A program made the translations under genes and the position numbers. From a virus (lineage: Duplodnaviria > Heunggongvirae > Uroviricota > Caudoviricetes): DNA of 18,044 nucleotides. Shown here one piece after another: positions 2,299 through 18,044 of this stretch (positions within the stretch are counted from its first letter, which is position 1; the number at the start of each line of letters is the position of its first letter). The stretch covers positions 64,001 to 82,044 of the IMG/VR virus record IMGVR_UViG_3300022699_000502. One strand, written 5' to 3'. A model generated the notes under the pieces. The model did not search any database, was not told where the DNA came from, and saw only the letters and a list, made by a program, of their open reading frames with translations.

Positions 2299-5200
2299 GG
2301 TATATATGAGTTTAGTTGCGTGGTGGAAGTTAGACGGAGATGGAACCGATTCATCTGGAAATGGATATGATGGAATAGTTCACGGTTCCCCTAGTTGGTC
2401 TGATGGAATAATAGGTACTTGTTATGATAATAGTGCGGATAACTCAAGTACAGGTGTGGAACTCTTACAACACGCAGATGCTCAAAAATATGATTATCAG
2501 CATAGCTGGTCTTTGTGGTTTAAAAGTACAACAAGTAGCGGATCAACAGGTAACAGGATATTGAGCAGAGATTGTTCCGAATACTTATGTGCAAACATAG
2601 ACCAAGATAGTGACCCCAATCATCTTGATTATGTAGATAGTGCATATGATGACATTGAACTTAATCAATGGTATCATTTAGCTATAACTACAGATGATGG
2701 TGTAAACTATGATTGGTATCTTAACGGCGAACATTGTAGAAGTGGTAGTGAACCGTATGATGAAACTGCACGGCCTTGGGTTATAGGTGGAAATACAGAA
2801 GGTGATGGTGATATATCTGGTAACGAATTTGTTGGTATGATTGATGATGTTAAATTCTTTGACCATAAACTAAGCATTAAAGAAGTAAAAGAATTAAGCA
2901 GAGCCAAAGTAGCACATTGGAAGTTTGATAATTTAAATTTATTAAAAAATGCAGGATTTGAAGGTAACGATTTATGTGTGGGTGATCCAGAACATTGGAA
3001 TTATCCAAAAGATTGTTGGAAAGTTAATGATTTAAGATCTGCACCTGATAGCGATGGAAGCAAATCATTTGGTAACAATTGGGATGGAACGGCAGTGTGT
3101 GATTCAAGTAGTTCATCTGCTGGTGTTTGGCCTAATGCATATGTATATCAAGATGTAAGAGTAGGTAGTGTTGATGAAATAAACGCATCTGCATGGATTT
3201 ATATTCCATCAGGTGGTGGTTATACTGATTGTAGTTCAGGTAACCAATATGTATATGAAGATGATGGTAGATTGCATCTTTATGCCTATGATTCTAATAT
3301 GAACCAAATAGGTGAAAAGAAAGGATTGTGGGGTGGTGAACTACAAAAAGGTAGTGGTTGGAGTAGGTTTAATCTTTCATGGGATTTACCAGATGGTACG
3401 GAAACAGTTAGATTTCAGATAGATGGTGGTGACGGTAATAATAGTTGTATAGACCCAGAAACAGGTCACACTGGTAATGCTGGTTTGTATATTGATGATT
3501 GTTCATTAACTCCTGTTAGATATAAAGATTCGTCTGGTTATGGTAATGACGGTACATTTAGTGGTAATGAGCCGATATGGGATGAAGATAGTGCATTGGG
3601 TAATGGATGTTTATATTTTGACGGGGATGATATGATGGTTACTGTTCCCCATTCTGATACTATAGATATAACTGGTGATGAAATATCTGTGTCCTACTGG
3701 CAAAAATTTAAAGATGCTGGTGACCAAGATCATCCTACAATTACAAAAACTTCCGAAACTGGATGGGCTGTTAGCAACGGATATGCAATAGGCCAAGGTT
3801 GGAGTGATAATCTTTATTCAGGTTTAGCAGGTGGTAGTTTAGGCGGTCAAGATGCGTCTATTAGAGAAGATGGAACTTGGTATCATGTAGTTCATACTTA
3901 TAAAAATGGTGAAGGTATGAAAGTCTATACAAACGGTAATTTAGAGATTTCAGATAACAGCTGGTCTGGTACTATTGGTTCTTCAAGTCATGATTTATGG
4001 ATCGGAGATGCTGAAAGAGGAGGTCAGTATTTTGGTAATTTAGACGATATAAGAATTTATGCAACTGCTTTATCGCAATCTGAAGTACAAGAATTATATG
4101 AACAAAGGGCAAGCATAGATAATGTTGGTAACTTAAATTCACAAATGTTTACAGAATCACAAGATAAATTACTAATTGATGAGGAATATTATGAATGTGT
4201 TTCAAGGTTAAGAGGTGCTAGCCCGCCAGAAACATTAAATTATTTAGATTGGGTTGAAGATGACGATACGCTAGGAAACATAGCGTTAGAAGGATTAGTT
4301 TATCTTACAACTACTGATATAATTCCAGATAGGGTTGAATTTACAAGGATAAATAATGACGAAGGCTTAACTTTTTATTATACTGATTCAGATGTTATAA
4401 TATATCCTGATGGTAATTGGAGTGTTGGGTGGAATTATGTAATATTACCTACTGTCCATTCATGGGAAAGTCCCAGTTCTACTGACTGGTCAAATATGGA
4501 TAGATTAGAAATATATAAAAATGGCTCTGATGATTCATCTCAAACCATAGGATTTAAGAATTTACATCTCACTAAATATAAAGATAATTCAGAACAGTTA
4601 GATACACATCTTAAAAAAACAGGTAACTATTATATTAAAAGTTTAAATGAGATAGGTTCATTAGGCGATGATTTGATTGGATATTGGCCATTAAATGGAA
4701 ATGCAAATGATTATAGTAAGAATAGTTATGACGGTTCATTAATGAATTCTCCTACACTAACGGATGGTGTTATGAATCAATGTTATGAGTTTGATGGTAA
4801 TAATCAATATATACAGATGCCACAGGATACATATTCAGGCGCATTATCTGATAGTGATGATACTATGAGTATTATGTGTTGGTTATATCCAACAGCCGTA
4901 CAAAGTGCATCAACAAATCATGCTGTTCAAAATTGTTTTATAGGACATTCGTCGAGTTCTTATAATGATAATTTAGAGTTAGGAGTTGATTACGATGATT
5001 ATTCACTACAAGTATATTTAGATACAAACTCGAATGATACGACGGCTACATATACTGATATTACACTTTCATTAAATACTTGGCATCATATTGCGTTATC
5101 AGTTAACTTAGTTGATGGTAGTGTAAAAAGATATCATAATGGAAACCTTATAGGTAATGACACAACTACTTGGTCTGGTTCAAATACATTTGATAATTCT

Positions 5201-5790
5201 GGTGCTGAATTTACAATAGCTGCATCTAGGTCGTACAGAGAACCTTATACAGGCAAAGTAGATGATGTTAGGCTATATAGTAGAGCATTGTCTGATGATG
5301 AGATAAAAACATTATATAATATGACAAATCCAAATGAGAAGGAAAGAGTTAGTATGGATAGTAAAGGAACTGTATATACAAAAGGACAATTTAAGGAGAC
5401 GATATAATGGCCGAGTTAACAACCACAAGGATTTATGGTGATTTATTCGCACACGGTGATATAGATTTATTAGATGGCAATTTAGATGATGTAGCCTCTA
5501 TAGACGGCGGTGGAGATTCCGTTCAATTTGACGATAATATATATAGCCCAACATCTTTACAAGTGTCAAGTGATAATGTAAGTATTGATATGGGTGATAT
5601 AGGAGACCTCAATAATGAAGACGGTGATATTGGATTTGATATGGATAGCGGTGGTGAATTTAATGTAGGTAGAACAGGCGGAAAAATATTCACTGTCGGT
5701 GTTACTATAAATCATTATACTGATACAGAATTAAACAACAATAATATTAATGATGTAGCATCTATAGATGGCGGCGGAGATGACATATTA
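1873..5790 (+). repeat. Dispersed NNIxDVASIDGGG module, four copies (core at ~1891, ~2155, ~5488, ~5752)
   Basis: Read from translations of the 1132 and 5407 ORFs. The DNA core gatgt(g/a)gc(c/a)tc(a/t)ataga(t/c)ggcgg is recognisable in all four copies. Confidence 0.88.
2306..5407 (+). CDS. Large multi-LamG (concanavalin A-like) adhesin/receptor-binding protein with a carbohydrate-binding-like insert
   Basis: 1033 aa with three LamG-like units (WWKLDG..WYHLAIT..GMIDDVKFF; HWKFD..WYHVVHTY..GNLDDIRIYATAL; YWPLNG..WHHIAL..GKVDDVRLYSRAL). A NLLKNAGFE...LYIDDCSL CBM-like domain is inserted in unit 2. Confidence 0.85.
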   Translation: MSLVAWWKLDGDGTDSSGNGYDGIVHGSPSWSDGIIGTCYDNSADNSSTGVELLQHADAQKYDYQHSWSLWFKSTTSSGSTGNRILSRDCSEYLCANIDQDSDPNHLDYVDSAYDDIELNQWYHLAITTDDGVNYDWYLNGEHCRSGSEPYDETARPWVIGGNTEGDGDISGNEFVGMIDDVKFFDHKLSIKEVKELSRAKVAHWKFDNLNLLKNAGFEGNDLCVGDPEHWNYPKDCWKVNDLRSAPDSDGSKSFGNNWDGTAVCDSSSSSAGVWPNAYVYQDVRVGSVDEINASAWIYIPSGGGYTDCSSGNQYVYEDDGRLHLYAYDSNMNQIGEKKGLWGGELQKGSGWSRFNLSWDLPDGTETVRFQIDGGDGNNSCIDPETGHTGNAGLYIDDCSLTPVRYKDSSGYGNDGTFSGNEPIWDEDSALGNGCLYFDGDDMMVTVPHSDTIDITGDEISVSYWQKFKDAGDQDHPTITKTSETGWAVSNGYAIGQGWSDNLYSGLAGGSLGGQDASIREDGTWYHVVHTYKNGEGMKVYTNGNLEISDNSWSGTIGSSSHDLWIGDAERGGQYFGNLDDIRIYATALSQSEVQELYEQRASIDNVGNLNSQMFTESQDKLLIDEEYYECVSRLRGASPPETLNYLDWVEDDDTLGNIALEGLVYLTTTDIIPDRVEFTRINNDEGLTFYYTDSDVIIYPDGNWSVGWNYVILPTVHSWESPSSTDWSNMDRLEIYKNGSDDSSQTIGFKNLHLTKYKDNSEQLDTHLKKTGNYYIKSLNEIGSLGDDLIGYWPLNGNANDYSKNSYDGSLMNSPTLTDGVMNQCYEFDGNNQYIQMPQDTYSGALSDSDDTMSIMCWLYPTAVQSASTNHAVQNCFIGHSSSSYNDNLELGVDYDDYSLQVYLDTNSNDTTATYTDITLSLNTWHHIALSVNLVDGSVKRYHNGNLIGNDTTTWSGSNTFDNSGAEFTIAASRSYREPYTGKVDDVRLYSRALSDDEIKTLYNMTNPNEKERVSMDSKGTVYTKGQFKETI

Positions 5791-6630
5791 TTCGGCGATA
5801 ATATAGATTTAAACTCCAATGATTTAGAAGATGATACAGTTACCATTTGGGATACATCAAACCAGTATATACCACAAGGTAGGTTACAGAACGATAGTTT
5901 GACTATAAATAGTGGCACACAGCTTACAGGTGGTGGAAGTGTATCACTCGGTGGTTCTATAACATTAAATGTAGATGAAGGTGCTGGAAGTGGATTGAAC
6001 GCCGATTTGTTAGATGGAGTACATTTAGCGGACATCACTTGGTCAGATGTAAGTATGTCCACTACAGATGTAAATATGGATGATGTTAGTCCAGCTAATG
6101 TTAATGTTGATTTAAATTCAAATGATTTAGAAGATGCCGGTACTATTATATGGGATACATCTAATCAATATATCCCACAAGGTAGATTACAAAATGATAG
6201 TGTTACCGTTACTGCTGGCGATGGCTTAAAAAATGGTGGAAGTGCAAGTTTGGGTAGTAGTACAACTTTAGATATTGATGTTTCAGATTTTGCAGGTTCG
6301 CATCTATCAGATGATGGTAGTGAGAATTTACAAGTTGATGATGATTTTATTTTAAATAGTGGAGACACTATGAATGGTAATTTAACTATGTCTGGGAATA
6401 TAAATGCAGGTTCAGACAGTTCGTATGATATAGGAGCGGATGGAACAAGATTTGCAAATGTATATGCTGATAATATTTATGGTACGGTTCATTATGCTGA
6501 TATATCGTTTGAAGAGAAAAAATGTGCAATATGTGATGAACCTTTCGAAGTTGGAGATAGTATAAGTTTGATAGTTACAAATGTAAAAGAAGATGGTACA
6601 TATATGGTTCCAAAACACGAGGGTTGCTGA
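5407..6630 (+). CDS. Fibre-like protein with a C-terminal Cys/His putative Zn-binding domain
   Basis: TAATG overlap with the upstream gene. Two DVASIDGGG repeats and two DLEDxxxxIWDTSNQYIPQGRLQNDS repeats. GAGSGLNADLLDG is a common fibre motif. C-terminus CAICDEPF...PKHEGC. Confidence 0.75.
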   Translation: MAELTTTRIYGDLFAHGDIDLLDGNLDDVASIDGGGDSVQFDDNIYSPTSLQVSSDNVSIDMGDIGDLNNEDGDIGFDMDSGGEFNVGRTGGKIFTVGVTINHYTDTELNNNNINDVASIDGGGDDILFGDNIDLNSNDLEDDTVTIWDTSNQYIPQGRLQNDSLTINSGTQLTGGGSVSLGGSITLNVDEGAGSGLNADLLDGVHLADITWSDVSMSTTDVNMDDVSPANVNVDLNSNDLEDAGTIIWDTSNQYIPQGRLQNDSVTVTAGDGLKNGGSASLGSSTTLDIDVSDFAGSHLSDDGSENLQVDDDFILNSGDTMNGNLTMSGNINAGSDSSYDIGADGTRFANVYADNIYGTVHYADISFEEKKCAICDEPFEVGDSISLIVTNVKEDGTYMVPKHEGC

Positions 6631-7829
6631 TGAGTTTTAGTTGGAGTGAAGATGTAAGTAGTGGTGCCTCTATAGACGATGAGGATATGAACGAAGTATA
6701 CAATAACATACAACATGTTGAGGATGTATTGGATTCTTGGTATCAGTATGTAACATTCAACGGAACTTCAACTTACGGAGCCATATCTGGACTTAATTAT
6801 TCAACTTCTGGTGTAATATCTTCTATGACTGTTACCGCTTGGGTTAGAGTCCCTAGTGATGGTGGCGATTGGTCTATATTAGATTTTGACAGGAGTGAAT
6901 ATTTTACATGTGCGGCAGGTATTGCAGTCGGTGGTAATAACGGTGAAGGAAATGTAGTTAGTTTTCAAACACATCATACAAGTGCAGGTACTCATGATAT
7001 GTGGGGCAATCAAGATATAAGAGATAATAGATGGCATCATATAGCATGGGTATATGATGGAACATATAAAACTATATATGTTGATGGAGCGGAAGATGAA
7101 AAGTTAGATGTTAGCGGCGATGGTAATATAGGAAGTGGAACTACACGTTATGGGTTTATAGGTGATGGTAGTGAAGCCTCATCTTTTGATGGTAGTAAAA
7201 ACGACATATACTTTGAAGGTGATATCGCTAGTGTTACTTTTTGGGATAATGTTGCATTAAACCAGACAGAAGTTCAAGATGCTATGTCAGGCCATTATAA
7301 AAGCGGTATTACAGGACAATGGAGATTTAGAGAAGGTAGCGGTAGTACAGTAAGTGATAATTCTGGAAACGGATATGATGTTACTCTTTATAATTATACT
7401 TGGAATGGTTCTGATATATCATTTGGTTGGTCTGAATTTTCAGTTGAAGGTACAGAAGGTACACCTGACTCGATTACGAGTGCTCAAATGACTGATTTGA
7501 GAGACGGTACAGAATATATAGACACAAATATGTTTGCCACATATAATAGTGATAATGATTACAGTGTTGATAGTGGTCATGATACAACGGTATATAGTGG
7601 TGAAGATTCTACATATAATGATGCTGTACAGACTGGAGATAACACAGACTATAATACTAGTGAAGATGACGGGGCTAATAATACATATGACGGGTCATTA
7701 TTAAGTGCTGATGATAGTTCTGATTATAGTGAGAATGATACTGGTGATGATGAAACAGTATATACTTCACAGTATAATGATGAGAATAGTGGTTATGATG
7801 ATAGTGTTAGTTTTGATGGAGTGGTATAA
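6630..7829 (+). CDS. Leader-LamG-leader-tetrapeptide-repeat protein; putative radical SAM substrate fused to a lectin-like domain
   Basis: ATG 6630 overlaps the upstream TGA. The N-terminus MSFSWSEDVSSGASID matches the next gene's N-terminus. LamG core (WHHIAWVYDG..IYVDG; FEGDIASV; WRFREGSGSTVSDNSGNG). A second leader-like segment lies at 7416-7529, followed by 23 tetrapeptide units. Confidence 0.75.
   Translation: MSFSWSEDVSSGASIDDEDMNEVYNNIQHVEDVLDSWYQYVTFNGTSTYGAISGLNYSTSGVISSMTVTAWVRVPSDGGDWSILDFDRSEYFTCAAGIAVGGNNGEGNVVSFQTHHTSAGTHDMWGNQDIRDNRWHHIAWVYDGTYKTIYVDGAEDEKLDVSGDGNIGSGTTRYGFIGDGSEASSFDGSKNDIYFEGDIASVTFWDNVALNQTEVQDAMSGHYKSGITGQWRFREGSGSTVSDNSGNGYDVTLYNYTWNGSDISFGWSEFSVEGTEGTPDSITSAQMTDLRDGTEYIDTNMFATYNSDNDYSVDSGHDTTVYSGEDSTYNDAVQTGDNTDYNTSEDDGANNTYDGSLLSADDSSDYSENDTGDDETVYTSQYNDENSGYDDSVSFDGVV
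7542..7817 (+). repeat. 4-residue periodic core, 23 units
   Basis: YNSD NDYS VDSG HDTT VYSG EDST YNDA VQTG DNTD YNTS EDDG ANNT YDGS LLSA DDSS DYSE NDTG DDET VYTS QYND ENSG YDDS VSFD. Position 2 is D(10), N(6) or Y(4) in 20 of 23 units. Confidence 0.85.
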
Positions 7830-8354
7830 ATGAGCATAACTTGGAGCGAAGATGTGAGTGTAGGAGCATCTATTGATAGTACAGATATAGTAGAAATAAG
7901 GAATGAAGTGGATAGAGTGGATGATAATAAATGTAATGAACATGATAGTACTTATGATAATGATGTAAATGCTACCGAATATTCAGGCGAGAATTCTAAC
8001 GAAAACGCCACTAATTATTCTTCAGACAATAGCGACTATGATTCAGGTGAGAATGTTGGTGAGAATGTTAATGAGAATTTAACCAATTTTTCATCTGATA
8101 AAGACACTAATGATAGTGGTTATTGTGGAACAAATGTGAGTGGTGACTATAGTAGTAATGATACTGGATATTGTTCTACAAATAATACTACTGTTAACGG
8201 TTCACATGATGGCGATGCAGAAAGTTCTTATTATAGTGGAGAAGACAGTACTTATAATAGCGGAGAAGATTCTAGTTATAATAGTACTGAGGATAGTGGT
8301 TTTAAAGGTACTGATTATTCTGATGTATTAGGTACTGATTGTTTATTATTGTGA
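7830..8354 (+). CDS. Putative radical SAM-modified precursor: ~33 aa leader plus ~35 tetrapeptide repeats
   Basis: 174 aa. Its leader is 18/32 identical to the N-terminus of the 6630 ORF. The core is N/D/S/T/Y/G/E-rich with period 4. It lies immediately upstream of two radical SAM/SPASM genes. Confidence 0.75.
   Translation: MSITWSEDVSVGASIDSTDIVEIRNEVDRVDDNKCNEHDSTYDNDVNATEYSGENSNENATNYSSDNSDYDSGENVGENVNENLTNFSSDKDTNDSGYCGTNVSGDYSSNDTGYCSTNNTTVNGSHDGDAESSYYSGEDSTYNSGEDSSYNSTEDSGFKGTDYSDVLGTDCLLL
7929..8348 (+). repeat. 4-residue periodic core, 35 units; all four Cys in one register
   Basis: KCNE HDST YDND VNAT EYSG ENSN ... YCGT ... YCST ... YYSG EDST YNSG EDSS YNST EDSG FKGT DYSD VLGT DCLL. 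Position 2 is N11, D9, Y5, C4, other 6. Cys occur at residues 35, 99, 115 and 171 (all 3 mod 4). Confidence 0.88.
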
Positions 8355-8359
8355 TATTT

Positions 8360-9649
8360 ATGAAATTAAATGAAAGAGCAGTTGCGGTTGAAGTTGTTAG
8401 TACGGGATGGTGTCCATTAGATTGTGATTACTGTTACATCCCAAAAACAGACGAAACTAAAAATATGCATGAAAATATAGTTAATAAACTTAGGAGTGGT
8501 GAATGGATTGATAAATTAGATGATAAATTTGAAAATTTACACCATGTAGGCTTTTGGGGAACAGAACCATTACTTATATTAGATATAGTTACAAACCAAA
8601 TAGATGATTTAGTTAATGTTTTCCCAAATATAAAAACCATAGAATTTTCTACATCATTATGTTTAAATCCCTTACCAATAAAAAGGTTAAAGGATAAGTT
8701 AAACGAATATGATATTGATATGAAATGGCAAGTTAGTGCAGATGGACATTATACTGATATAAATAGGATGGATGGTGCAACCCAAAAGATTAAAGACAAT
8801 TTAAAAAAGTTGGCAAAAAATATGGATAAATTTACATTGAAGTGGAAACCCACCATATCAATAGATAATATAGAAGATATGGCAAACAACCCAGACGAGG
8901 TTGAAAAATTTCTTTCATTTTATAAAGATATGAAAGAATATGTATTAGATATAAATGATAATGTTGAAATAGCTGAGGGTTCATATGCACCAACATTAGT
9001 AGTACCAGGTAAATATACAAGTGATGACGGTAAAATTTTTGCTAAATATATTGAAAATATGAGAAAATATAATTATGATACCGCATATACTAATAGATTA
9101 AAAAGAGTAATGAATTATTCTTATGACCTAGATAGAAATCCTTCTATGTTCACGTGCTCGGGCGGAGATTCTAACTTTGGTTTTGACGATGGCAATATAC
9201 ATATATGTCATAGAACATTTTATCAAGATAGAAATAAATATATAGAAAGTATAAAACAACAGAAAAGATATGATAATTGGGATGTATCATTATTTGAGGA
9301 TGGTACTATAAATATGATAAAGGATAAGTATATAGTTGGTGATGATGATTTATTACGATTTGAATATGTCATGAGAAGTTATCACGATTATTTGGAATTA
9401 AAATTAAACCACACCAATGCAATAATAATAGAATTAGCCAAATGCGGTCAAGCAGATGATATTTATATGGATAATCCTGAGTTAAGAGAAACATTGGCTT
9501 TATTTCTACACACATCACATAGTTGTCCAGCTGAGAATTTATTAAATACAGGTGTGGTTCATTTTATGCCAGTAAGTATGATAAGATTATGGGCAAATGG
9601 AGCATTTCAAGAATTATTAAAAACAGTTGGTGATAATAATGAGTTTTAA
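8360..9649 (+). CDS. Radical SAM enzyme 1, SPASM/Twitch-like peptide maturase type
   Basis: CPLDCDYC (CxxxCxxC) at 8411-8434, FWGTEP (GGE-motif variant), QVSADG, and CSGGDSNFGFDDGNIHICHR (first SPASM/Twitch Cys pair). The start is placed at ATG 8360 after GTGAT. Confidence 0.9.
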   Translation: MKLNERAVAVEVVSTGWCPLDCDYCYIPKTDETKNMHENIVNKLRSGEWIDKLDDKFENLHHVGFWGTEPLLILDIVTNQIDDLVNVFPNIKTIEFSTSLCLNPLPIKRLKDKLNEYDIDMKWQVSADGHYTDINRMDGATQKIKDNLKKLAKNMDKFTLKWKPTISIDNIEDMANNPDEVEKFLSFYKDMKEYVLDINDNVEIAEGSYAPTLVVPGKYTSDDGKIFAKYIENMRKYNYDTAYTNRLKRVMNYSYDLDRNPSMFTCSGGDSNFGFDDGNIHICHRTFYQDRNKYIESIKQQKRYDNWDVSLFEDGTINMIKDKYIVGDDDLLRFEYVMRSYHDYLELKLNHTNAIIIELAKCGQADDIYMDNPELRETLALFLHTSHSCPAENLLNTGVVHFMPVSMIRLWANGAFQELLKTVGDNNEF

Positions 9650-10916
9650 GGAAGAAAATAATGAACTTGGGAAAAATTTTATCAAAAATATGTACTTGGA
9701 TTATTGGGAATCTGATGAGGATAATGGTAATCATAATAGAATTGAAATACAAACATCATATAAATGCAATTTAAATTGTAAATATTGTTATGTTGATAGG
9801 CATAGGGATAAATTATATAATGAAGTAGATGATGATGATTTATATGACAATGCGGAAATGTTAATAGATTGGTTAATCGAAAATGATTACAATCCTTCGA
9901 TAGACTATTTTGGCGGGGAAGTATTTGTTAATGATATCAATTTTAAAATATTAAATATGATATTAGATAAATTTAAAGATAAGGATAGCGTTCCACCCAA
10001 AATTGTAATACCAACTAATTTTACATGGATAAAAAGTGAAAATATAACAAAAAAAGTAGATGAATTAATAGAAAAATCAAGGAATATAGGTGTTCCTATA
10101 TATTTATCTGCTTCAATAGATGGGAAATATTGTACTGAGAACAGACCACCAATAAAATTCGATGATGATGATTATCAAAAATTGTTCAAGTTTTGCAAAA
10201 AATGGAAAATAAATTTCCACCCTATGATATATAGTGAAGAAATAGAAAATTGGAAAGATAATTGGTTATGGTTTCAGGATTGGTTAGAAAAGACTGATAG
10301 ACCTTTCGATTCTATATATTTGCTTGAAGTTAGAAATAGAGAATGGACAAAAGGACAAATAAACGAGTTTCAAGACTACATCAAATGGTTGATTGACTGG
10401 ACTATCAATAAAGTAGGTAAGGACGAACTGGTAAAGTTTATATTTGATGATGGTTATAATATATTAAGAACACCATTCACAACTATAGGAAGAGGTATGG
10501 GTTGTTCTATGCAAGCATCTTTATTCGTCAGGTTGTCAGATTTGACATTTAATATATGCCACCGTTTATCGTACGATGAATTTGAATTAGGCCATTTTGT
10601 TTATGATGATAAGATTGATGATTTAGTTGTAGATAAGCCTGAATTATTGATAGGAACAAAATCATTAGACCAAAAAACATATCCTGGTTGTGAAGATTGT
10701 CCCATAAATTATATGTGTAGTGGTCAATGTTTGGGTGCGATGTATGAATATACTGGGGATATGTATACACCGATACCTAATGTATGTAGATTAGAATTGG
10801 CAAAAATTAAAAGTATTATTGAAAAATTTAAGGATGAAAATATGTTAGATGAAGTAAAAAGATATGTTAACAGTAACATATTAAAACAAATAGAGTGGAT
10901 GGAGGAACAAATATGA
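9639..10916 (+). CDS. Radical SAM/SPASM enzyme 2, peptide maturase type
   Basis: CNLNCKYC at 9765-9788, YFGGE and SASIDG. Full SPASM-like pattern C-x17-C(HR)...CEDCPINYMCSGQC-x18-C. The start is placed at ATG 9639 after GGTGAT, overlapping enzyme 1. Confidence 0.92.
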   Translation: MSFKEENNELGKNFIKNMYLDYWESDEDNGNHNRIEIQTSYKCNLNCKYCYVDRHRDKLYNEVDDDDLYDNAEMLIDWLIENDYNPSIDYFGGEVFVNDINFKILNMILDKFKDKDSVPPKIVIPTNFTWIKSENITKKVDELIEKSRNIGVPIYLSASIDGKYCTENRPPIKFDDDDYQKLFKFCKKWKINFHPMIYSEEIENWKDNWLWFQDWLEKTDRPFDSIYLLEVRNREWTKGQINEFQDYIKWLIDWTINKVGKDELVKFIFDDGYNILRTPFTTIGRGMGCSMQASLFVRLSDLTFNICHRLSYDEFELGHFVYDDKIDDLVVDKPELLIGTKSLDQKTYPGCEDCPINYMCSGQCLGAMYEYTGDMYTPIPNVCRLELAKIKSIIEKFKDENMLDEVKRYVNSNILKQIEWMEEQI

Positions 10917-11395
10917 ACTTTGAGGAAAGGAAGAAAGCTATGTTAAAATTACTGAAAAGTCAAAAAGGACTTAATAAATATTGGAATGACGGCGATGCTA
11001 ATAAGATTAGAGATGCAACAAAATATATGATAAATACATTAGAGGATATAAAATGCGGAAAAACAGTAGTAATAGGTTCAAAAAGAGAAAATCAGATAAA
11101 AAATACAACAAATATGGTATTAGATGTTGTACTAAATCTTGGTATAACTGATTATATGAAGGACTTAGCAATATCATATGGTATAATATTAAAAAATTGG
11201 AATGATAATACATTAAATGATGAAACTTTAAAATATGAAGCTAAATCTATCGTAAGGTTAATAGAGTCCAATTACTCAATAAGAGACCTTATCAATATAG
11301 TAGATAAATTGAAAAGAAATAACATTGAAAATAGACATGCAAGATTGGCAAGACATTATTTAAAAACATTGGAGGATGATGTAGATGACAGTTAA
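10913..11395 (+). CDS. Hypothetical helical, Lys/Ile/Asn-rich protein in the radical SAM cassette
   Basis: ATGA overlap with the enzyme 2 stop, and GGAGG upstream. No motif recognised. Confidence 0.65.
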   Translation: MNFEERKKAMLKLLKSQKGLNKYWNDGDANKIRDATKYMINTLEDIKCGKTVVIGSKRENQIKNTTNMVLDVVLNLGITDYMKDLAISYGIILKNWNDNTLNDETLKYEAKSIVRLIESNYSIRDLINIVDKLKRNNIENRHARLARHYLKTLEDDVDDS

Positions 11396-11627
11396 AGAAA
11401 TAAATAACAATGTTGAAGATGTAAATATATTATTAACTGAAGTAAAAGATGAAGATACAGGTGAAATAACTAGAAAAAGTCTCGATATAATAATATATGG
11501 TATGCGAGATAGAATAGATATGTACGGTTTTTACGGTGACTACACATATACTGATAACAAAATAATAATCAAAAAGCATAGTAGTGCGGACGGCCATCTT
11601 GTAGAAACTATAACATACAATTATTAA
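11385..11627 (+). CDS. Hypothetical 80 aa protein, last gene of the cassette
   Basis: Overlaps the previous gene, with GGAGGATGAT upstream. Beta-strand-like pattern. No motif recognised. Confidence 0.6.
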   Translation: MTVKEINNNVEDVNILLTEVKDEDTGEITRKSLDIIIYGMRDRIDMYGFYGDYTYTDNKIIIKKHSSADGHLVETITYNY

Positions 11628-11703: not shown

Positions 11704-11719
11704 GGTTTAGGTGGATATT

Positions 11720-11926
11720 ATGAAGAAGATAAAAAAGAAAGATGACCATGGTTTAATGTGGTTTACCGATGATTTCGTGGTATTGTTCCTGGTGATGAGT
11801 ACAGTAGCACTGTTTGCATTAGGATACGAACTACCAGAATACCTAACGAACGGTTTCTATGTAAGTTTACTCTATACAACTGGTAAAAAAGGTCTACAGA
11901 TGTGGAAACAGCTCAAAAATGGATAA
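11720..11926 (+). CDS. Small membrane protein, holin-like
   Basis: 68 aa with a basic N-terminus, hydrophobic FVVLFLVMSTVALFALGY, a second weaker hydrophobic segment and a basic C-terminus. GGTGG lies upstream of ATG 11720. Confidence 0.5.
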   Translation: MKKIKKKDDHGLMWFTDDFVVLFLVMSTVALFALGYELPEYLTNGFYVSLLYTTGKKGLQMWKQLKNG

Positions 11927-11974: not shown

Positions 11975-13129
11975 ATGAAAATTTTATGGTATTCAGTAGC
12001 GCCCTTCGTTGCGTCCGGTTATGGAACTCAGACTAAAGGCGTAATTAATGAGCTAACAAAAAGAGATATTGACGTTGATGTAGATTGTTTTTCGGGTCAA
12101 CTACATGGAGATACAGAAGAGGAAATAAACGGGCAAACCGTAAAAATGTACGGCGGAAGCGGTGGAATATTCGATAAAGGTCTAATAAACAGATCAACTA
12201 ATTATGATGTTACCGTCACACATATGGATCAATGGATGATACCGGATCAATTAGAGAAGGTTAAAGGTGATATGATTCATTGGTCGATAATAGACCAGAC
12301 ACCACCACCAAGATCCTTACAGGCAATAGATGGATTTGAAAACACAAAAGGATTTGTACCTATGACGAATTGGGGTAAAAGCCAAATGGAAAAATATTAT
12401 GATTCGGATAATATGTTTGATCCAATATATCATGGTGTTGATCTAGACATATTTACTCCAGATAAGTCAGGTTTAGACGATAACTACCAAAAATTCGTCG
12501 ATAGTGCCGATTTCTTGGTTGGTATAATCGGTACAAACACATTGAGAGAAATGATACCGAATAATTTAGAAGCATTTTGTAAATTCGCGGAAAAAATAGA
12601 CGAAAAAGCTAAAATATATGTTAATAGCCAATTATATAGACAAGACGGGCATCATCTGCCAACTATCGTAGAAAATTTATTAGCAGATTATGATGTTACT
12701 AACGATCAAATTGTATTTAGAAATCCAGATAAAAACAAATTACCAGTTGACCAACTAGCTGCATTATACGCAAACATGGATGTGCATTTAGCAACAACAA
12801 TGGGAGATAGTTTCGGAATTCCAATTTGTGAAGCGGGTGCCTGCAAAACACCGTCCATAGTTACAAAATTTAGTGCACCTCCAGAGCTAGTAGATGATGG
12901 TAGAGGACTAAAAGTAAAACCACATGCTGATATTTGGATGCAAAGAACGAATAGCAAACAGAAAATCCCAAGTACAGACGATATTGCTAGAGCATTAGAG
13001 ATCTATTACGAAGATGAAAAGAAGCGTAAACTTCATGGTCGAAAAATGCGTAAATGGGCAAAAATGAACTGCAATTGGAACACCGTAGGAGAACAATGGG
13101 CCAATCTACTGAGGCGAGAATACGGCTGA
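11975..13129 (+). CDS. GT-B fold glycosyltransferase, family 4-like
   Basis: N-terminal MKILWYSVAPFVASGYG, plus PIYHGVD and LYANMDV...TMGDSFGIPICEAGACKTPSIVT...ELV (acidic-x7-Glu GT4 motif). Confidence 0.88.
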   Translation: MKILWYSVAPFVASGYGTQTKGVINELTKRDIDVDVDCFSGQLHGDTEEEINGQTVKMYGGSGGIFDKGLINRSTNYDVTVTHMDQWMIPDQLEKVKGDMIHWSIIDQTPPPRSLQAIDGFENTKGFVPMTNWGKSQMEKYYDSDNMFDPIYHGVDLDIFTPDKSGLDDNYQKFVDSADFLVGIIGTNTLREMIPNNLEAFCKFAEKIDEKAKIYVNSQLYRQDGHHLPTIVENLLADYDVTNDQIVFRNPDKNKLPVDQLAALYANMDVHLATTMGDSFGIPICEAGACKTPSIVTKFSAPPELVDDGRGLKVKPHADIWMQRTNSKQKIPSTDDIARALEIYYEDEKKRKLHGRKMRKWAKMNCNWNTVGEQWANLLRREYG

Positions 13130-13130
13130 T

Positions 13131-13529
13131 ATGATGAATGATAAGGAAATGAGACAACTGCTAGAAAAGCTAAACAAATTGATTGATGAAAGAGAAACAA
13201 GTAATGGTTCCCTCTCAAAAGTGGAGGTATCTTTAGGTAAACTTGAAACTAAAGTAGAGAATATTGAAGAAAAACAAGGCGATTTAAATGACCGTGTTAA
13301 CCAGATTTTAGGATACTTCAATGATCCCGCAAGAGAATCTGCTTCATTACGAGAACACATTGCTAACTGTCCTGCCAGAGACTTCTATGAATCTAAAGAA
13401 AGCATGACAACTAAACCTGAAATGTATGAAGGATTGCAAAAATCCTTGATAATAAAAATGTTATTGATAAACGGCGGCATGATGGTACTGGTTGTTGCCT
13501 TGGCGGAATTATTGATGATGATGATGTGA
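13131..13529 (+). CDS. Coiled-coil protein with a C-terminal transmembrane anchor (XhlA-like architecture)
   Basis: Heptad segment LSKVEVSLGKLETKVENIEEKQGDLNDRV and hydrophobic C-terminus MLLINGGMMVLVVALAELLMMMM. Confidence 0.6.
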   Translation: MMNDKEMRQLLEKLNKLIDERETSNGSLSKVEVSLGKLETKVENIEEKQGDLNDRVNQILGYFNDPARESASLREHIANCPARDFYESKESMTTKPEMYEGLQKSLIIKMLLINGGMMVLVVALAELLMMMM

Positions 13530-13534
13530 TTGAT

Positions 13535-15199
13535 ATGCCTTATGAAAATGAACATGCGTGTAGGTTACAAAACCCTGATAAATATAATCAGTTTAGAAGA
13601 GTTAATAATGATATCGAAGTTGGTGGTAAAAAAGCCGATGCAATATACGGTATAAATGGTGATACCGCTGAACTCCAAGCTGTTAGATTTAAGACGGATA
13701 AATTCACGGAGAATGAAGCACACAATTGGTGTAGAAACCATAACGGAACATTTGAACCGGCTTCAAATAATGAAGGTAATAAAATGAAAAATACACAAGA
13801 TAAAATTTTTAAAAATAAAGCAGTTCCTACCCATACACCAGATATGCTAGACGACGAATCGTGGGATGGAGATAATGCAGTTGATAACTTAAGACAATGG
13901 GCAAGTAACGACGGATCCGGTGATAAAGAAACTATTGATTGGGATGATTACAAATACGGATTCGGATGGTATAATGATAACGAACCAGAAAATTTCACCT
14001 CTTATAAACTACCACACCACAAAGTAGTAAACGGGGAACTTAGGACATCCAAACAAGGTGTGTATGCTGCGGCAGCTGCTGTTGAAGGCGCTCGAGGTGG
14101 TATAGATATATCTGATAGTCAGTTGGCAGATGTAAGAGACCACTTAGAAACGCACTATTCACAGATGGACGAAGATCCACCTTGGCGTGAAATGCAAGAT
14201 GAATATGTTTGTGAATGTCTAGAATGTGGACATATTGTAGAATCTGAAGAACATTGTAAAGATATAAAGTGTCCCGAATGTGGAGGACAAATGAGAAGAC
14301 TTGAAAGACCTGGTGAAGGCCGACATGAACAAACCGATAATTTCTATCTATTGAAACATTGGTGGAAAGGTCAATTTGTTGTTAAATGGGGTCCGTCTAA
14401 AGAACATTGGGACTTATTTTATAACGGTAAACAAATAGTACTTGATAGCAATCCATTAGAATCAAATGAGATGGGTACCGCAATACGCGAACCATACACA
14501 AACGACTTTGAGAAAAAGGGTTCTAATGGACCTGAATATATTGAACCAGGTACACCTGGAAATCCAACGAAGGATACGTCATGTTGGGTTGAAAGACTTG
14601 ATGAGGGTACAATCAACGTCGAAATAGACACGGAAACCAAAAAAGTATTTAGTATCAACGGAGAAAATCTGACCGACACATGGGTACTAGAAAGAGAAGA
14701 TGAAAATACTAATCTTTGGGTTATGAAAAAGCAGGAACAACACAGTGAACTACAACAACATGAACTCAGCTGCGATACACCTGTTGAAATAGAACTCATG
14801 GAAATGTTACCAACAGGTAACATGAAAATAGAAGGGTGTATATTGGGTGAAGGTGTCTGGAACGGATATTTCTGGCCCGGGGACGTAGTAAAAGAAGTCG
14901 GTGAAGAAGCTATCGAAAATCTTAAAATAGAAGTTGGACCTGACCACGAAGATAAAATCACTGACGCAGGTGAAGTGATAAACTATCAGTGGGATGACCA
15001 CAAAAAAGGTTGGCATATCGAAGCAATAATCGATAACAAAGAAGCGATCGAACGTGCACAATCGTTAGAAGATCCTGGGTGGTCTATCGAAGCAACTGCA
15101 TATAGTGACAACGTAAGAAACATAATAAAAGAAATAACAGATCTTAAATCTGCGGTACTAGTAAGAGTCCCTGCATGTAAGACCTGTTATGTATCGTGA
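13535..15199 (+). CDS. Multidomain putative prohead (capsid maturation) protease
   Basis: The C-terminal ~125 aa have the HK97-type layout: candidate His in GPDHED (14945), candidate Ser in GWSIE (15083), ending SAVLVRVPAC. Upstream domains are PYENEHACRL..ELQAVRF..WC, SYKLPHH..GARGGIDI..HLETHY, a Zn ribbon and a KHWW..HWDL segment. The gene lies upstream of scaffold and capsid. Confidence 0.7.
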   Translation: MPYENEHACRLQNPDKYNQFRRVNNDIEVGGKKADAIYGINGDTAELQAVRFKTDKFTENEAHNWCRNHNGTFEPASNNEGNKMKNTQDKIFKNKAVPTHTPDMLDDESWDGDNAVDNLRQWASNDGSGDKETIDWDDYKYGFGWYNDNEPENFTSYKLPHHKVVNGELRTSKQGVYAAAAAVEGARGGIDISDSQLADVRDHLETHYSQMDEDPPWREMQDEYVCECLECGHIVESEEHCKDIKCPECGGQMRRLERPGEGRHEQTDNFYLLKHWWKGQFVVKWGPSKEHWDLFYNGKQIVLDSNPLESNEMGTAIREPYTNDFEKKGSNGPEYIEPGTPGNPTKDTSCWVERLDEGTINVEIDTETKKVFSINGENLTDTWVLEREDENTNLWVMKKQEQHSELQQHELSCDTPVEIELMEMLPTGNMKIEGCILGEGVWNGYFWPGDVVKEVGEEAIENLKIEVGPDHEDKITDAGEVINYQWDDHKKGWHIEAIIDNKEAIERAQSLEDPGWSIEATAYSDNVRNIIKEITDLKSAVLVRVPACKTCYVS

Positions 15200-16854: not shown

Positions 16855-17217
16855 ATGTCTGCAGGAGATATAGATTACGAATTCAGCCTTTGGGTTAAAA
16901 GCGGCACAGCAAACGCTTCAATAACCGCAGGTGATATCGTATATAACGGTGGAGACGGATGGATACCCGCTGACGGCAGTTATAGTGGTCAGCCAATTGG
17001 TGTTGCAAATGCGGATGCAGATTCTGCATCTTCGTTCGCGATTATCAGATCAGGTGTTGTATCCGTTGCAAAGGCAACAGGAACTGCTACAGTAGATGGT
17101 ACAGAAGTTGATTTGACTAGTGGTGAAGTAGAAGAAGGTGGAACAACAACTCCAAATGCATTTGTTGTTGAAGCCACAGCAAGCGACGCTGAAGAAGTGC
17201 AAATTTATCTAGTCTAG
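16855..17217 (+). CDS. Capsid cement/decoration protein (DUF2190-like)
   Basis: 120 aa with ITAGDIVY..PIGVA..A..IIRSGVVSVAKATG pattern, located between scaffold and major capsid genes, with AGGTGA upstream. Confidence 0.7.
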   Translation: MSAGDIDYEFSLWVKSGTANASITAGDIVYNGGDGWIPADGSYSGQPIGVANADADSASSFAIIRSGVVSVAKATGTATVDGTEVDLTSGEVEEGGTTTPNAFVVEATASDAEEVQIYLV

Positions 17218-17228
17218 AGGTGATATGA

Positions 17229-18044
17229 ATGGGTAAACTAGTTGTTAGAGACGATTTGTCAGATCCGATGAAGGCTGAAGTAATACTGGAAGAAGTCTAT
17301 AGAGAAGTGAGAGCATCATATAATTTAAGAGAGGCTTGTAGAGTAATTGGTACGGGTGAAGCATTAAATATTGAGATTCCACTTGTAACCCAGAGAGTAT
17401 CTGGTCAGCAAGATGTGCCTGAATTAGAAGAGGCTGAGATCTCAAGTCAAGCTTATAGTCACATTTCATCCAAGTTACACAAGAATGTCGTACACATAGC
17501 ATTGTCCAGAGAAGCACAGATGGAAGCTAAACAAGATATATTGTCGATGCATGTACAAGATGCAGGTCAAGAGATCGGTAGAATGGAGAATGCAGAGATC
17601 GCTGATGAGTTTAGCGCATTAGACAGTAATAGCGGCAGCGATTGGTCAGCATCCAATGATCCGTTCGACGACATAATGACAGCTGCAACCACTGTACGTG
17701 AAAATGGATATGAACCAACACAATTGTGGATGGAACCGGGTGTTTATTCCGCGTTAGTATCCAACGATGACATACTTGACAGGCTCGAAAGAGGTGCTAC
17801 AGCAGACGGTCAGTTAGGAACCATAGCTGGTTTTGATATAAGACTTGATCAGGAACTACCTGATGGAGAAGCATATCTGATCGATCCAACCGCACCAGCA
17901 TTCGTGCTGTTCGATGGTCCAGAATGGATATCTGAATATAGTTCAGATACAGCATTCTATGATGGTTATATCATAGCGGACTTCCTCGGATTAGAGACAG
18001 TATTACCAAATGCTGCGTATAGGCTGACTGATCTATTAGGTTAA
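17229..18044 (+). CDS. Major capsid protein, HK97-like fold
   Basis: 271 aa with IEIP..VPELEE..KLHKNVVHIALSRE..DIL..IGRMENAEI, DPFDDIMTA..V..GYEPTQLWMEP and GTIAGFDIRLDQELPDGEAYLID. GAGGTGAT upstream; the stop is at the window end. Confidence 0.85.
   Translation: MGKLVVRDDLSDPMKAEVILEEVYREVRASYNLREACRVIGTGEALNIEIPLVTQRVSGQQDVPELEEAEISSQAYSHISSKLHKNVVHIALSREAQMEAKQDILSMHVQDAGQEIGRMENAEIADEFSALDSNSGSDWSASNDPFDDIMTAATTVRENGYEPTQLWMEPGVYSALVSNDDILDRLERGATADGQLGTIAGFDIRLDQELPDGEAYLIDPTAPAFVLFDGPEWISEYSSDTAFYDGYIIADFLGLETVLPNAAYRLTDLLG

Follow-up and report, generated by a model that had tools for sequence, protein, structure and literature searches.

A paired radical SAM cassette predicted to modify virion fibre proteins of tailed viruses

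Maturases of the radical S-adenosylmethionine (SAM) type with SPASM domains are known to act on small secreted peptides and on a few proteins, namely sulfatases, the QhpC subunit and HxsA. Here we describe a gene cassette from an uncultured, salt-adapted, tailed archaeal virus in which chemistry otherwise known from peptide antibiotics most likely acts on two repeat-tailed fibre proteins. The cassette lies in an 18,044-nucleotide stretch of DNA (hereafter, the window; positions 64,001 to 82,044), which is the final 18 kb of the 82-kb IMG/VR record IMGVR_UViG_3300022699_000502, classed by IMG/VR as a provirus. We think it probable that a pair of radical SAM enzymes and their helical partner modify the two fibre proteins, A1 and A2, ahead of their assembly into a fibre or needle, and that the product is retained on the virion. 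A more specific proposal, advanced tentatively, is that the polar tetrad-repeat shaft of an attachment fibre is covalently stapled by the dedicated enzyme pair into a kind of ‘chain-mail’. With the same reserve, we suggest that this chain-mail could span archaeal and bacterial tailed viruses together with a small number of episymbiotic cells of the candidate phyla radiation (CPR) and DPANN that use twin-arginine translocation (Tat) export.

Radical SAM maturation of proteins is already known; its application to virion fibres, as predicted here from sequence, is what would be new. Our literature search, which covered phage, tail-fibre, SPASM, CXXX-repeat and CPR contexts, found no description of the cassette. 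If the prediction is true, it would provide a new way to build or harden the host-recognition apparatus, in which the chemistry of RiPPs (peptides made on the ribosome and modified after translation) serves a structural organelle. It would also open a large untapped reservoir of enzyme chemistry (approximately 1,500 domain clusters at 50% identity and hundreds of relatives of enzyme 2), and a module common to halophilic-archaeal viruses, TAG-recoded phages and Tat-linked CPR and DPANN cells would join virus attachment with episymbiont surface biology.

Gene layout and conservation

The first-pass annotation of the window, made from its letters, proposed six coupled genes at positions 6630-11627, and this layout holds: all six are plus-strand open reading frames (ORFs) with ATG starts that overlap or abut one another (Table 1). 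At two junctions the ATG start lies over the preceding stop (TGATG at 6628-6632 and ATGA at 10913-10916), the second lying between enzyme 2 and its 166-residue partner (the helper), which are translationally coupled. Overlaps of 11 nucleotides occur at 9639-9649 and 11385-11395. The proposed viral fibre setting is also borne out: upstream are LamG proteins that resemble adhesins and a PHROG match to ‘baseplate protein’, and downstream are cement and major capsid proteins. Genes of the PHROG types tail, tail fiber and baseplate lie upstream both in the window and in other loci.

Profile scans for enzyme 2 identified 51 loci in IMG/VR and 26 in GTDB species genomes. Several of the ‘genome’ contigs were identical to IMG/VR contigs, and counts are therefore given for 65 non-redundant loci; ORFs were called in all loci and searched with hidden Markov models (HMMs) built from the window and four relatives. 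Enzyme 1 is adjacent in 62 of the 65 loci and the helper is present in 60, with a glycosyltransferase in 18 and a Cys3-His module immediately upstream in 13. Proteins with the conserved domain shared by A1 and A2 (see below) were found in 47 loci, 45 of which have two, and tetrad-repeat proteins in 44; most loci without a repeat gene end at a contig edge just before enzyme 1. The usual order runs from a class II protein with two domain copies through a class I protein with a single copy that ends D-N-x-C to enzyme 1, then enzyme 2, then the helper, with the Cys3-His-ended protein, where there is one, at the front.

The carriers are mostly viral contigs, with a few CPR and DPANN genomes. In the tree of enzyme 2, the window falls in a clade (support 100/99) with four other salt-adapted sequences, of which one is on an ENA contig and three are on short contigs binned in a Thermoplasmata metagenome-assembled genome (MAG). 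The next neighbour of this clade is a Nanohaloarchaeota MAG contig on which the cassette stands beside ribosomal-protein and RNA-polymerase genes. A scan of viral contigs with the single enzyme 2 protein gave no match, whereas the profile scan did find the loci; among cultured phages, we found only a 24%-identical radical SAM protein of a Campylobacter phage.

Six viral loci on phage contigs of 124-190 kb (L031, L047, L052, L053, L054 and L082) have enzymes that are fragmented under translation table 11 but intact (446-539 residues) when TAG is read as a residue. Reading TGA as a residue does not restore the frames, and these phages probably use a TAG-recoded genetic code.

Seven CPR loci, from Saccharibacteria, Parcubacteria, Paceibacterota and metagenome relatives, have the cassette immediately behind tatC, tatA and a gene whose small product bears a twin-arginine signal. 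These loci are L004:1-1260, L006:614-1883, L062, L066, L067, L069 and L071, and the twin-arginine signal reads RRKFLK. A position behind tatC and tatA is consistent with a product that is completed in the cytoplasm and leaves the cell folded, and suggests that the modified fibre-like product of these cells is exported in this state, possibly by hitch-hiking. The Tat-linked copies form small groups in the midpoint-rooted tree, the other branches of which are mostly viral. A search of 300 sampled further genomes from the phylum of one CPR carrier returned no enzyme 2 homologue at E <= 1e-40; cellular carriage is therefore sporadic among the genomes searched.

Enzymes akin to peptide and protein maturases

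Both enzymes have the CxxxCxxC motif, at C25, C29 and C32 in enzyme 1 (invariant in 46 relatives) and at C47, C51 and C54 in enzyme 2 (invariant in 29 relatives). Enzyme 2 adds a full seven-cysteine SPASM motif (C293, C311, C355-x2-C358-x5-C364-x3-C368 and C387), also invariant in 29 relatives, and passes the SPASM model TIGR04085 (29.5 bits; cut-off, 27). Enzyme 1 keeps just three invariant auxiliary cysteines (C273, C290 and C396), a twitch-like or partial SPASM arrangement. The earlier description of the pair as two SPASM enzymes was therefore half right, as only enzyme 2 has the full motif. At 21% identity (E 0.002), the enzymes are distant paralogues of one another, and enzyme 1 scores just below the Pfam Radical_SAM cut-off (29.3 against 29.5 bits). 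At least 366 proteins are homologous to enzyme 2, with 40-58% identity. Two more, very divergent radical SAM-like ORFs (423 and 421 residues) follow right after the cassette in one locus (L045:9820-12349).

In NCBIfam, both enzymes match PapB (NF047865) best, with 45 bits for enzyme 1 and 62.6 bits for enzyme 2 against a cut-off of 340. Weaker matches include HxsB, SCIFF and CteB-type maturases, anSME, the QhpD type and cyclophane synthases, and all NCBIfam matches above noise are to peptide or protein maturases (PapB, YhhB, AmcB, GrrM, anSME, QhpD-type and HxsB). The same holds across the 46 relatives of enzyme 1, all of which match PapB, with 42-44 matching YhhB, AmcB and GrrM, 38 matching anSME and 29 matching the CXXX-repeat maturase. 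The nearest solved structures in a profile search were CteB (5WGG), 8VPO, ChlB (9GM3), anSME (4K36-39) and SkfB; for enzyme 1 they were CteB (5wgg), ChlB (9gm3, the second-closest) and anSME (4k36). Because all neighbours of both enzymes modify peptides or proteins, the enzyme class is clear.

The first-pass annotation had named two findings that would tell against its proposal: that such enzymes usually occur without repeat proteins, or that they cluster with radical SAM enzymes for cofactors or DNA modification. Domain-bearing genes accompany enzyme 2 in 47 of the 65 loci, and the HMM scans and structure-profile search returned only peptide- or protein-modifying matches. The linkage to repeat proteins and the kinship to protein maturases therefore go the other way on both points. 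The layout had been likened to that of the CXXX-repeat, sactipeptide, ranthipeptide and triceptide families, but membership in any of them did not survive, as every model cut-off was missed.

PapB and CteB, SPASM maturases of the ranthipeptide/sactipeptide type, are the nearest of the known systems in sequence. Enzyme 2 aligns along the whole PapB model, CxxxCxxC and SPASM motifs are shared, and the candidate substrates are likewise encoded by adjacent genes with Asp/Asn-rich repeated motifs. The systems differ in that both enzymes lie far below the PapB cut-off, that no RiPP recognition element was found in them, and that the putative substrates here are proteins of 174-401 residues in a virion module. 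The Cys-X3-Asp/Glu repeats of PapB substrates are also not seen; of the four cysteines of A2, only C35-x3-D39 fits.

A conserved domain in paired fibre proteins

Residues 1-32 of A1 and A2 are 56% identical (18/32; E 4e-8) and belong to a conserved domain of approximately 35 residues with the consensus M-A-F-[ST]-W-x-x-x-[IV]-x-x-G-x-x-I-...-E-[IL]-[RK]-x-N-x-D-x-[IVL]-x-D-(N)-x-x-C. W5, G12, E22, N26 and D28 are near-invariant (W in 72, E in 71, G in 64 and D in 63 of 72 aligned copies), and the domain usually ends in D-N-x-C (C in 50 copies). A histidine three residues past this cysteine completes a D-N-x-C-x-x-H-[D/N]-S junction. Class II relatives have the domain twice, and halophile class II proteins, including A1, have no cysteine at its end. 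A second copy lies at residues 263-300 of A1 (E 6e-6), and the LamG domain of A1 is therefore inserted between two copies.

A search of 1.84 billion proteins with a profile of the domain retrieved 1485 cluster representatives, 251 of them at E <= 1e-10. Lengths are mostly 60-250 residues, and some representatives of 520-960 residues have the domain near the C terminus. In relatives of the window, domain and repeat follow a NosD-type β-helix (L002, 557 residues) or other large N-terminal parts (L017 and L080); domain plus repeat forms the end of proteins of 557, 594 and 558 residues. The N-terminal similarity that had been read as a shared leader is real, but the domain, duplicated in the A1 class and internal in a number of relatives, is no simple cleavable leader. 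The proposal of retained, structural-looking products fares better. LamG is inserted in A1, domain and repeat end fibre-like relatives of 550-960 residues, tail-type genes lie upstream, and neither the window, as had been noted, nor its viral relatives contain protease or transporter genes.

A2 has no match in PDB, Pfam, NCBIfam, PHROG or PADLOC, and a word-based homologue search with its leader gave no candidate. In the AlphaFold2 model of A2, residues 1-30 form an extended segment and a helix with a predicted local distance difference test score (pLDDT) of 88-95, and the core scores about 50 as a monomer. We count a confidently folded domain with a core unfolded in the monomer as support for maturation before assembly.

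A2 ends (8340-8354) in a cysteine followed by hydrophobic residues, as do the class I proteins of L002, L003 and L060; these halophile ends (D-C-L-L-L, F-C-D-I-L-N and F-C-D-M-L-A) look CaaX-like. This feature is clade-specific, with a cysteine within the last 12 residues in only 20 of 98 family members.

A four-residue register in the repeat core

The core of A2 follows the tetrad consensus [Y/H/V/E]-[D/N/Y/C]-[S/G/A]-[T/S/G], and its residue autocorrelation exceeds that of shuffled sequences at lags of 4 (z 2.4), 8 (z 7.6) and 16 (z 5.1). Periodicity is weaker in A1 (z 2.1 at lag 8). In the set of 68 related cores, every lag divisible by 4 up to 24 has a mean z of +2.6 to +4.3, and lags of 2, 6, 10 and onward have negative values. 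The register does not slip within any core; it holds in all 8 windows of A2 and is unbroken over 23 consecutive 16-residue windows in one relative (L004:3330-4598). An expectation-maximization fit to the 68 cores gave Y/H/V/D at position 1 (Y 24%, H 18%), D/N/Y at position 2 (D 27%, N 25%, Y 15%, C 3%), S/G/T/A at position 3 (S 37%, G 14%, T 13%, A 11%) and T/S/G at position 4. The periodic core is thus confirmed in its register of 4 and 8 residues; a reading of the period as a string of modification sites is less secure, because it may instead be that of a structural β-helix.

S, D, N, T and Y together make up more than half of the core composition. Cores of the family are acidic, averaging 16% D+E and 3.4% K+R (the A2 core has 26 acidic residues and 2 basic ones), and each core in the window has one histidine. 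The A2 core contains 12 N-x-S/T sequons, where shuffled versions have 5.3 +/- 1.8; enrichment in the family as a whole is modest (mean z 1.1).

The 8-residue super-period may be that of a triple-stranded β-helix, as one homologous core suggests. The core of a class II relative (L025:5707-6876) matches DUF2345 (52.8 bits) and Gp5_trimer_C (41.2 bits), both above the Pfam cut-offs, and the VgrG/gp5 structure PDB 9gtr_q (E 3.6e-4). The helices of T4 gp5 and VgrG (PF22178 and PF10106) resemble the cores in their octads, in the hydrophobic or aromatic first residue, in small turn residues and in their place in a virion spike or fibre. They differ in that gp5 and VgrG need no radical SAM enzymes and in that the cores here are far more polar.

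Other parallels concern chemistry. Asp and Asn at position 2, along with the rare Cys, are in the class of residues targeted for hydrogen abstraction by PapB-, NxxcB- and QhpD-type enzymes, and the E-x3-Y spacing of halophile cores recalls PqqA. The [Y/H]-x-[S/T/A] triplets are reminiscent of triceptide motifs. In likeness to the repeated aromatic-X-X motifs in substrates of triceptide (three-residue cyclophane) maturases (XyeB, GrrM/OscB, YhhB, AmcB, ChlB 9GM3 and HtkB/HaaB), [Y/H]-x-[S/T/A/D] recurs every four residues, and 42-44 of the 46 enzyme 1 relatives match the GrrM, YhhB and AmcB models. However, scores are 18-34 bits against cut-offs of 310-450, and position 3 is Gly in 14% of tetrads. 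The CXXX-repeat system (TIGR04115, TIGR04119 and TIGR04114/PF27846) likewise combines a strict four-residue core register with radical SAM neighbours, and the rare cysteines of A2 sit where N, D or Y otherwise stand. It differs in its cysteine at every fourth residue, where the family has D/N/Y and only 3% C at position 2; TIGR04115 (16.6 bits; cut-off, 350) and TIGR04119 (16.8 bits; cut-off, 150) fall short, and the target families gave no match. One ESM-Atlas neighbour cluster of A2 has PF27846 in 19% of its members; the Atlas feature scores of A2 (<= 0.84) serve as leads only.

Comparison with the HXS system

The closest architectural parallel is HXS, an antiphage defence system that comprises the repeat effector HxsA, the radical SAM enzymes HxsB and HxsC, and a small protein, HxsD, that binds HxsC; HxsA receives one +8 Da modification (Li et al., Nat Commun 2026, PMC13128918). 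The likeness is one of architecture alone: a tandem radical SAM pair, a small partner and a repeat substrate that remains a protein, all in one operon. Cores of the relatives described here are also rich in H-[D/N]-S, and the cellular versions are exported. By contrast, the HxsB model (TIGR03978; cut-off, 370) gives 44.3 bits for enzyme 2 and 20.2 for enzyme 1, no NCBIfam match to HxsA was obtained, and HxsC is absent among the matches listed. HxsA has five basic repeats and a peptidoglycan-binding domain; the cassette proteins have tens to hundreds of acidic tetrads and lack that domain, and they are encoded among virus tail-fibre genes with an all-helical partner.

Predicted maturation of virion fibres

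We propose that A1 and A2 are paralogous fibre proteins, in which the approximately 35-residue domain is followed by an acidic polar tail in unbroken 4/8 register. Before assembly, enzyme 1 (with one auxiliary cluster) and enzyme 2 (with the full SPASM set), each probably partnered by the helical 166-residue protein, would use hydrogen abstraction to modify either the tails or the conserved Cys/His junction. The likeliest product would be a set of side-chain cross-links. The modified proteins would probably assemble as a trimeric β-helix similar to those of gp5 and VgrG and stay on the virion, probably docked on the Cys3-His module at the end of the fibre protein encoded upstream; sugar addition by the glycosyltransferase is possible. 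If the cross-links are those of the chain-mail, the near absence of Cys donors would make them a type that has yet to be described.

We favour this maturation because of the near-obligate gene linkage, the class to which the enzymes belong, the structural domains fused to the proteins, the setting in tail modules and, in cells, the link to Tat, a pathway that exports finished proteins in folded form. Cassette anatomy, conservation of the gene set, enzyme class and structural context are direct observations; from them we infer A1 and A2 as substrates, the type of chemistry, the trimeric β-helix, the docking and the virion location.

Several points weigh against maturation. Modification of A1 and A2 is a prediction from sequence, and the virion location is read from genomic context. 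The chemistry of characterized enzymes is not transferable, because both enzymes lie far below every characterized family cut-off. No Pfam match to a PqqD-type RiPP recognition element was found in either enzyme, with only about 20-45 residues preceding CxxxCxxC, and the helper is all-helical. Cysteine is rare (four in A2 and one in A1, with none in the repeat tail of A1). The strict period may be purely structural, that of a β-helix, and Gly occupies 14% of position 3; the A1 and A2 cores themselves have no match in Pfam (including PF22178 and PF10106) or PDB.

In one alternative, the repeats are only a structural triple β-helix and the enzymes modify one or a few sites at the D-N-x-C-x-x-H-[D/N]-S junction. 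Conservation of the junction (Cys after the domain in 50/72 aligned copies, with His three residues on) is consistent with this, as is the passing of gp5/VgrG Pfam models by a homologous core, and in HXS the +8 Da change falls on one SHRSS motif only (PMC13128918). We nevertheless consider it unlikely. The junction cysteine is absent from halophile class II proteins, A1 included, and the D/N/S/T/Y/H composition of the core is conserved far beyond what is found in gp5 and VgrG helices.

The enzymes could instead act on a sugar or a glycosylated residue and, together with the glycosyltransferase, decorate the fibre with an unusual glycan rather than a peptide cross-link. BtrN is a sugar-modifying radical SAM enzyme with a twitch-like single auxiliary site, and enzyme 1 resembles it in this respect. 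L006 and L062 encode fusions of enzyme 1 to a glycosyltransferase of an approximately 320-residue family, members of which come after the cassette in about 17 loci, and the tetrad consensus embeds N-x-S/T, with the excess of sequons in A2 given above. Yet a glycosyltransferase occurs in only 18 of 65 loci and is lacking in the closest relatives of the window (L002, L003 and L058-L060), the sequence neighbours of both enzymes are all peptide or protein maturases, and the family-wide enrichment of sequons is modest. Sugar chemistry as the main function is thus distinctly improbable.

We give still less credence to a virus-borne counterpart of HXS for defence or superinfection exclusion, in which matured repeats would block competing viruses and form no part of the virion. 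Its attraction lies in the shared architecture of two radical SAM enzymes, a small binding partner and an exported repeat effector (PMC13128918), and in the link of cellular copies to Tat export. However, enzyme 2 reaches 44 bits against 370 for HxsB, with neither HxsA nor HxsC among the matches listed; the cores are acidic, whereas the HxsA repeats are basic and bind DNA; and the proteins are fused to LamG, β-helix and fibre domains within tail modules. A PADLOC search gave generic viperin-type noise only.

A classical secreted RiPP, that is, a bacteriocin-like moron whose leader cleavage and export rely on host functions, would share the layout of a leader-like domain, a variable core and a SPASM enzyme, but it is hardly credible given the lack of protease and transporter genes in the window and its viral relatives, cores of up to 380 residues, a domain that is duplicated or internal in large proteins, and LamG in A1.

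Helper, docking module and neighbouring genes

The first-pass annotation counted two accessory genes, of which the helper gene proved to be family-wide (60/65 loci) and the 80-residue ORF to have no detectable relative. The helper is predicted with confidence by AlphaFold2 (pLDDT 91.5) as a six-helix fold, and four loci (L021, L022, L025 and L033) have a separate helper paralogue after each enzyme. Structural searches returned no informative relative: the best E value in a Foldseek search of PDB was 0.4, the best Z score in VIA-align was 8.6 (below what is meaningful for helical bundles), the AFDB clusters held 2 unnamed or auto-named look-alikes, and the Atlas gave generic four-helix bundles. 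The 80-residue ORF has no relative among the ORFs of 83 related loci and probably lies outside the conserved set. Its equation with the gene for a 114-149-residue protein after the helper in CPR loci was rejected by pairwise comparison (E 3.8).

The last 57 or so residues of the 407-residue fibre protein (nucleotides ~6457-6627) are the conserved Cys3-His module, with the pattern G.V.Y.D..F....C..C...F.......L.V...P.H..C (C-x2-C ... H-x2-C). In viruses this module forms the C-terminal end of proteins of 71-1655 residues, and in CPR bacteria it is a protein of its own, with 84-122 residues. The glycosyltransferase in the window is not detectably of the approximately 320-residue family of the relatives; it is a possible additional maturation enzyme.

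Upstream, the fibre protein at 1132-2298 has His-rich repeats (D-H-H-x-R-Y-x-D-S-E-A-I-x-A-I-N-N-D-G-D-H-G-S-T-A-x-H-N-Y) that recur several times just before the cassette in the Nanohaloarchaeota MAG contig (L003:2-613) and make up a distinct, conserved fibre repeat. The glycosyltransferase has a small ORF with hydrophobic segments on either side, one encoding a 71-residue orphan (11711-11926) and the other a 132-residue coiled coil with a C-terminal membrane-like segment (13131-13529). Between the fibre block and the head genes, a 557-residue protein (13526-15199) has a central CxxC...CxxC zinc-ribbon; its Pfam match to DUF7129 is below the cut-off, and no family was reached.

Table 1 Features of the window in and around the cassette (positions in nucleotides of the window)
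Feature	Position	Strand	Details
Fibre- or adhesin-like gene, upstream	1132-2298
Fibre- or adhesin-like gene, upstream	2306-5407		Three LamG-type stretches
Fibre protein, 407 aa	5407-6630	+	PHROG 20556 ‘baseplate protein’, E 2e-6
A1, class II fibre paralogue, 401 aa	6630-7829	+	Pfam Laminin_G_3, E 3e-16
A1, domain copy 1	6630-6728
A1, LamG	~6816-7277
A1, domain copy 2	~7416-7529
A1, acidic Y/D/S/T/N repeat tail	~7530-7826
A2, class I paralogue, 174 aa	7830-8354	+	Conserved domain (residues 1-35, ending D-D-N-K-C), then tetrad core (~33 tetrads); C terminus C-L-L-L
Radical SAM enzyme 1, 429 aa from ATG	8360-9649	+
Radical SAM enzyme 2, 425 aa from ATG	9639-10916	+
All-helical partner (acc166), about 160-166 aa	10913-11395	+
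Orphan ORF, 80 aa	11385-11627	+
Group 1 glycosyltransferase	11975-13129	+	Pfam Glyco_trans_1_4, Glycos_transf_1
Cement protein, downstream of cassette	16855-17217
Major capsid protein, downstream of cassette	17229-18044

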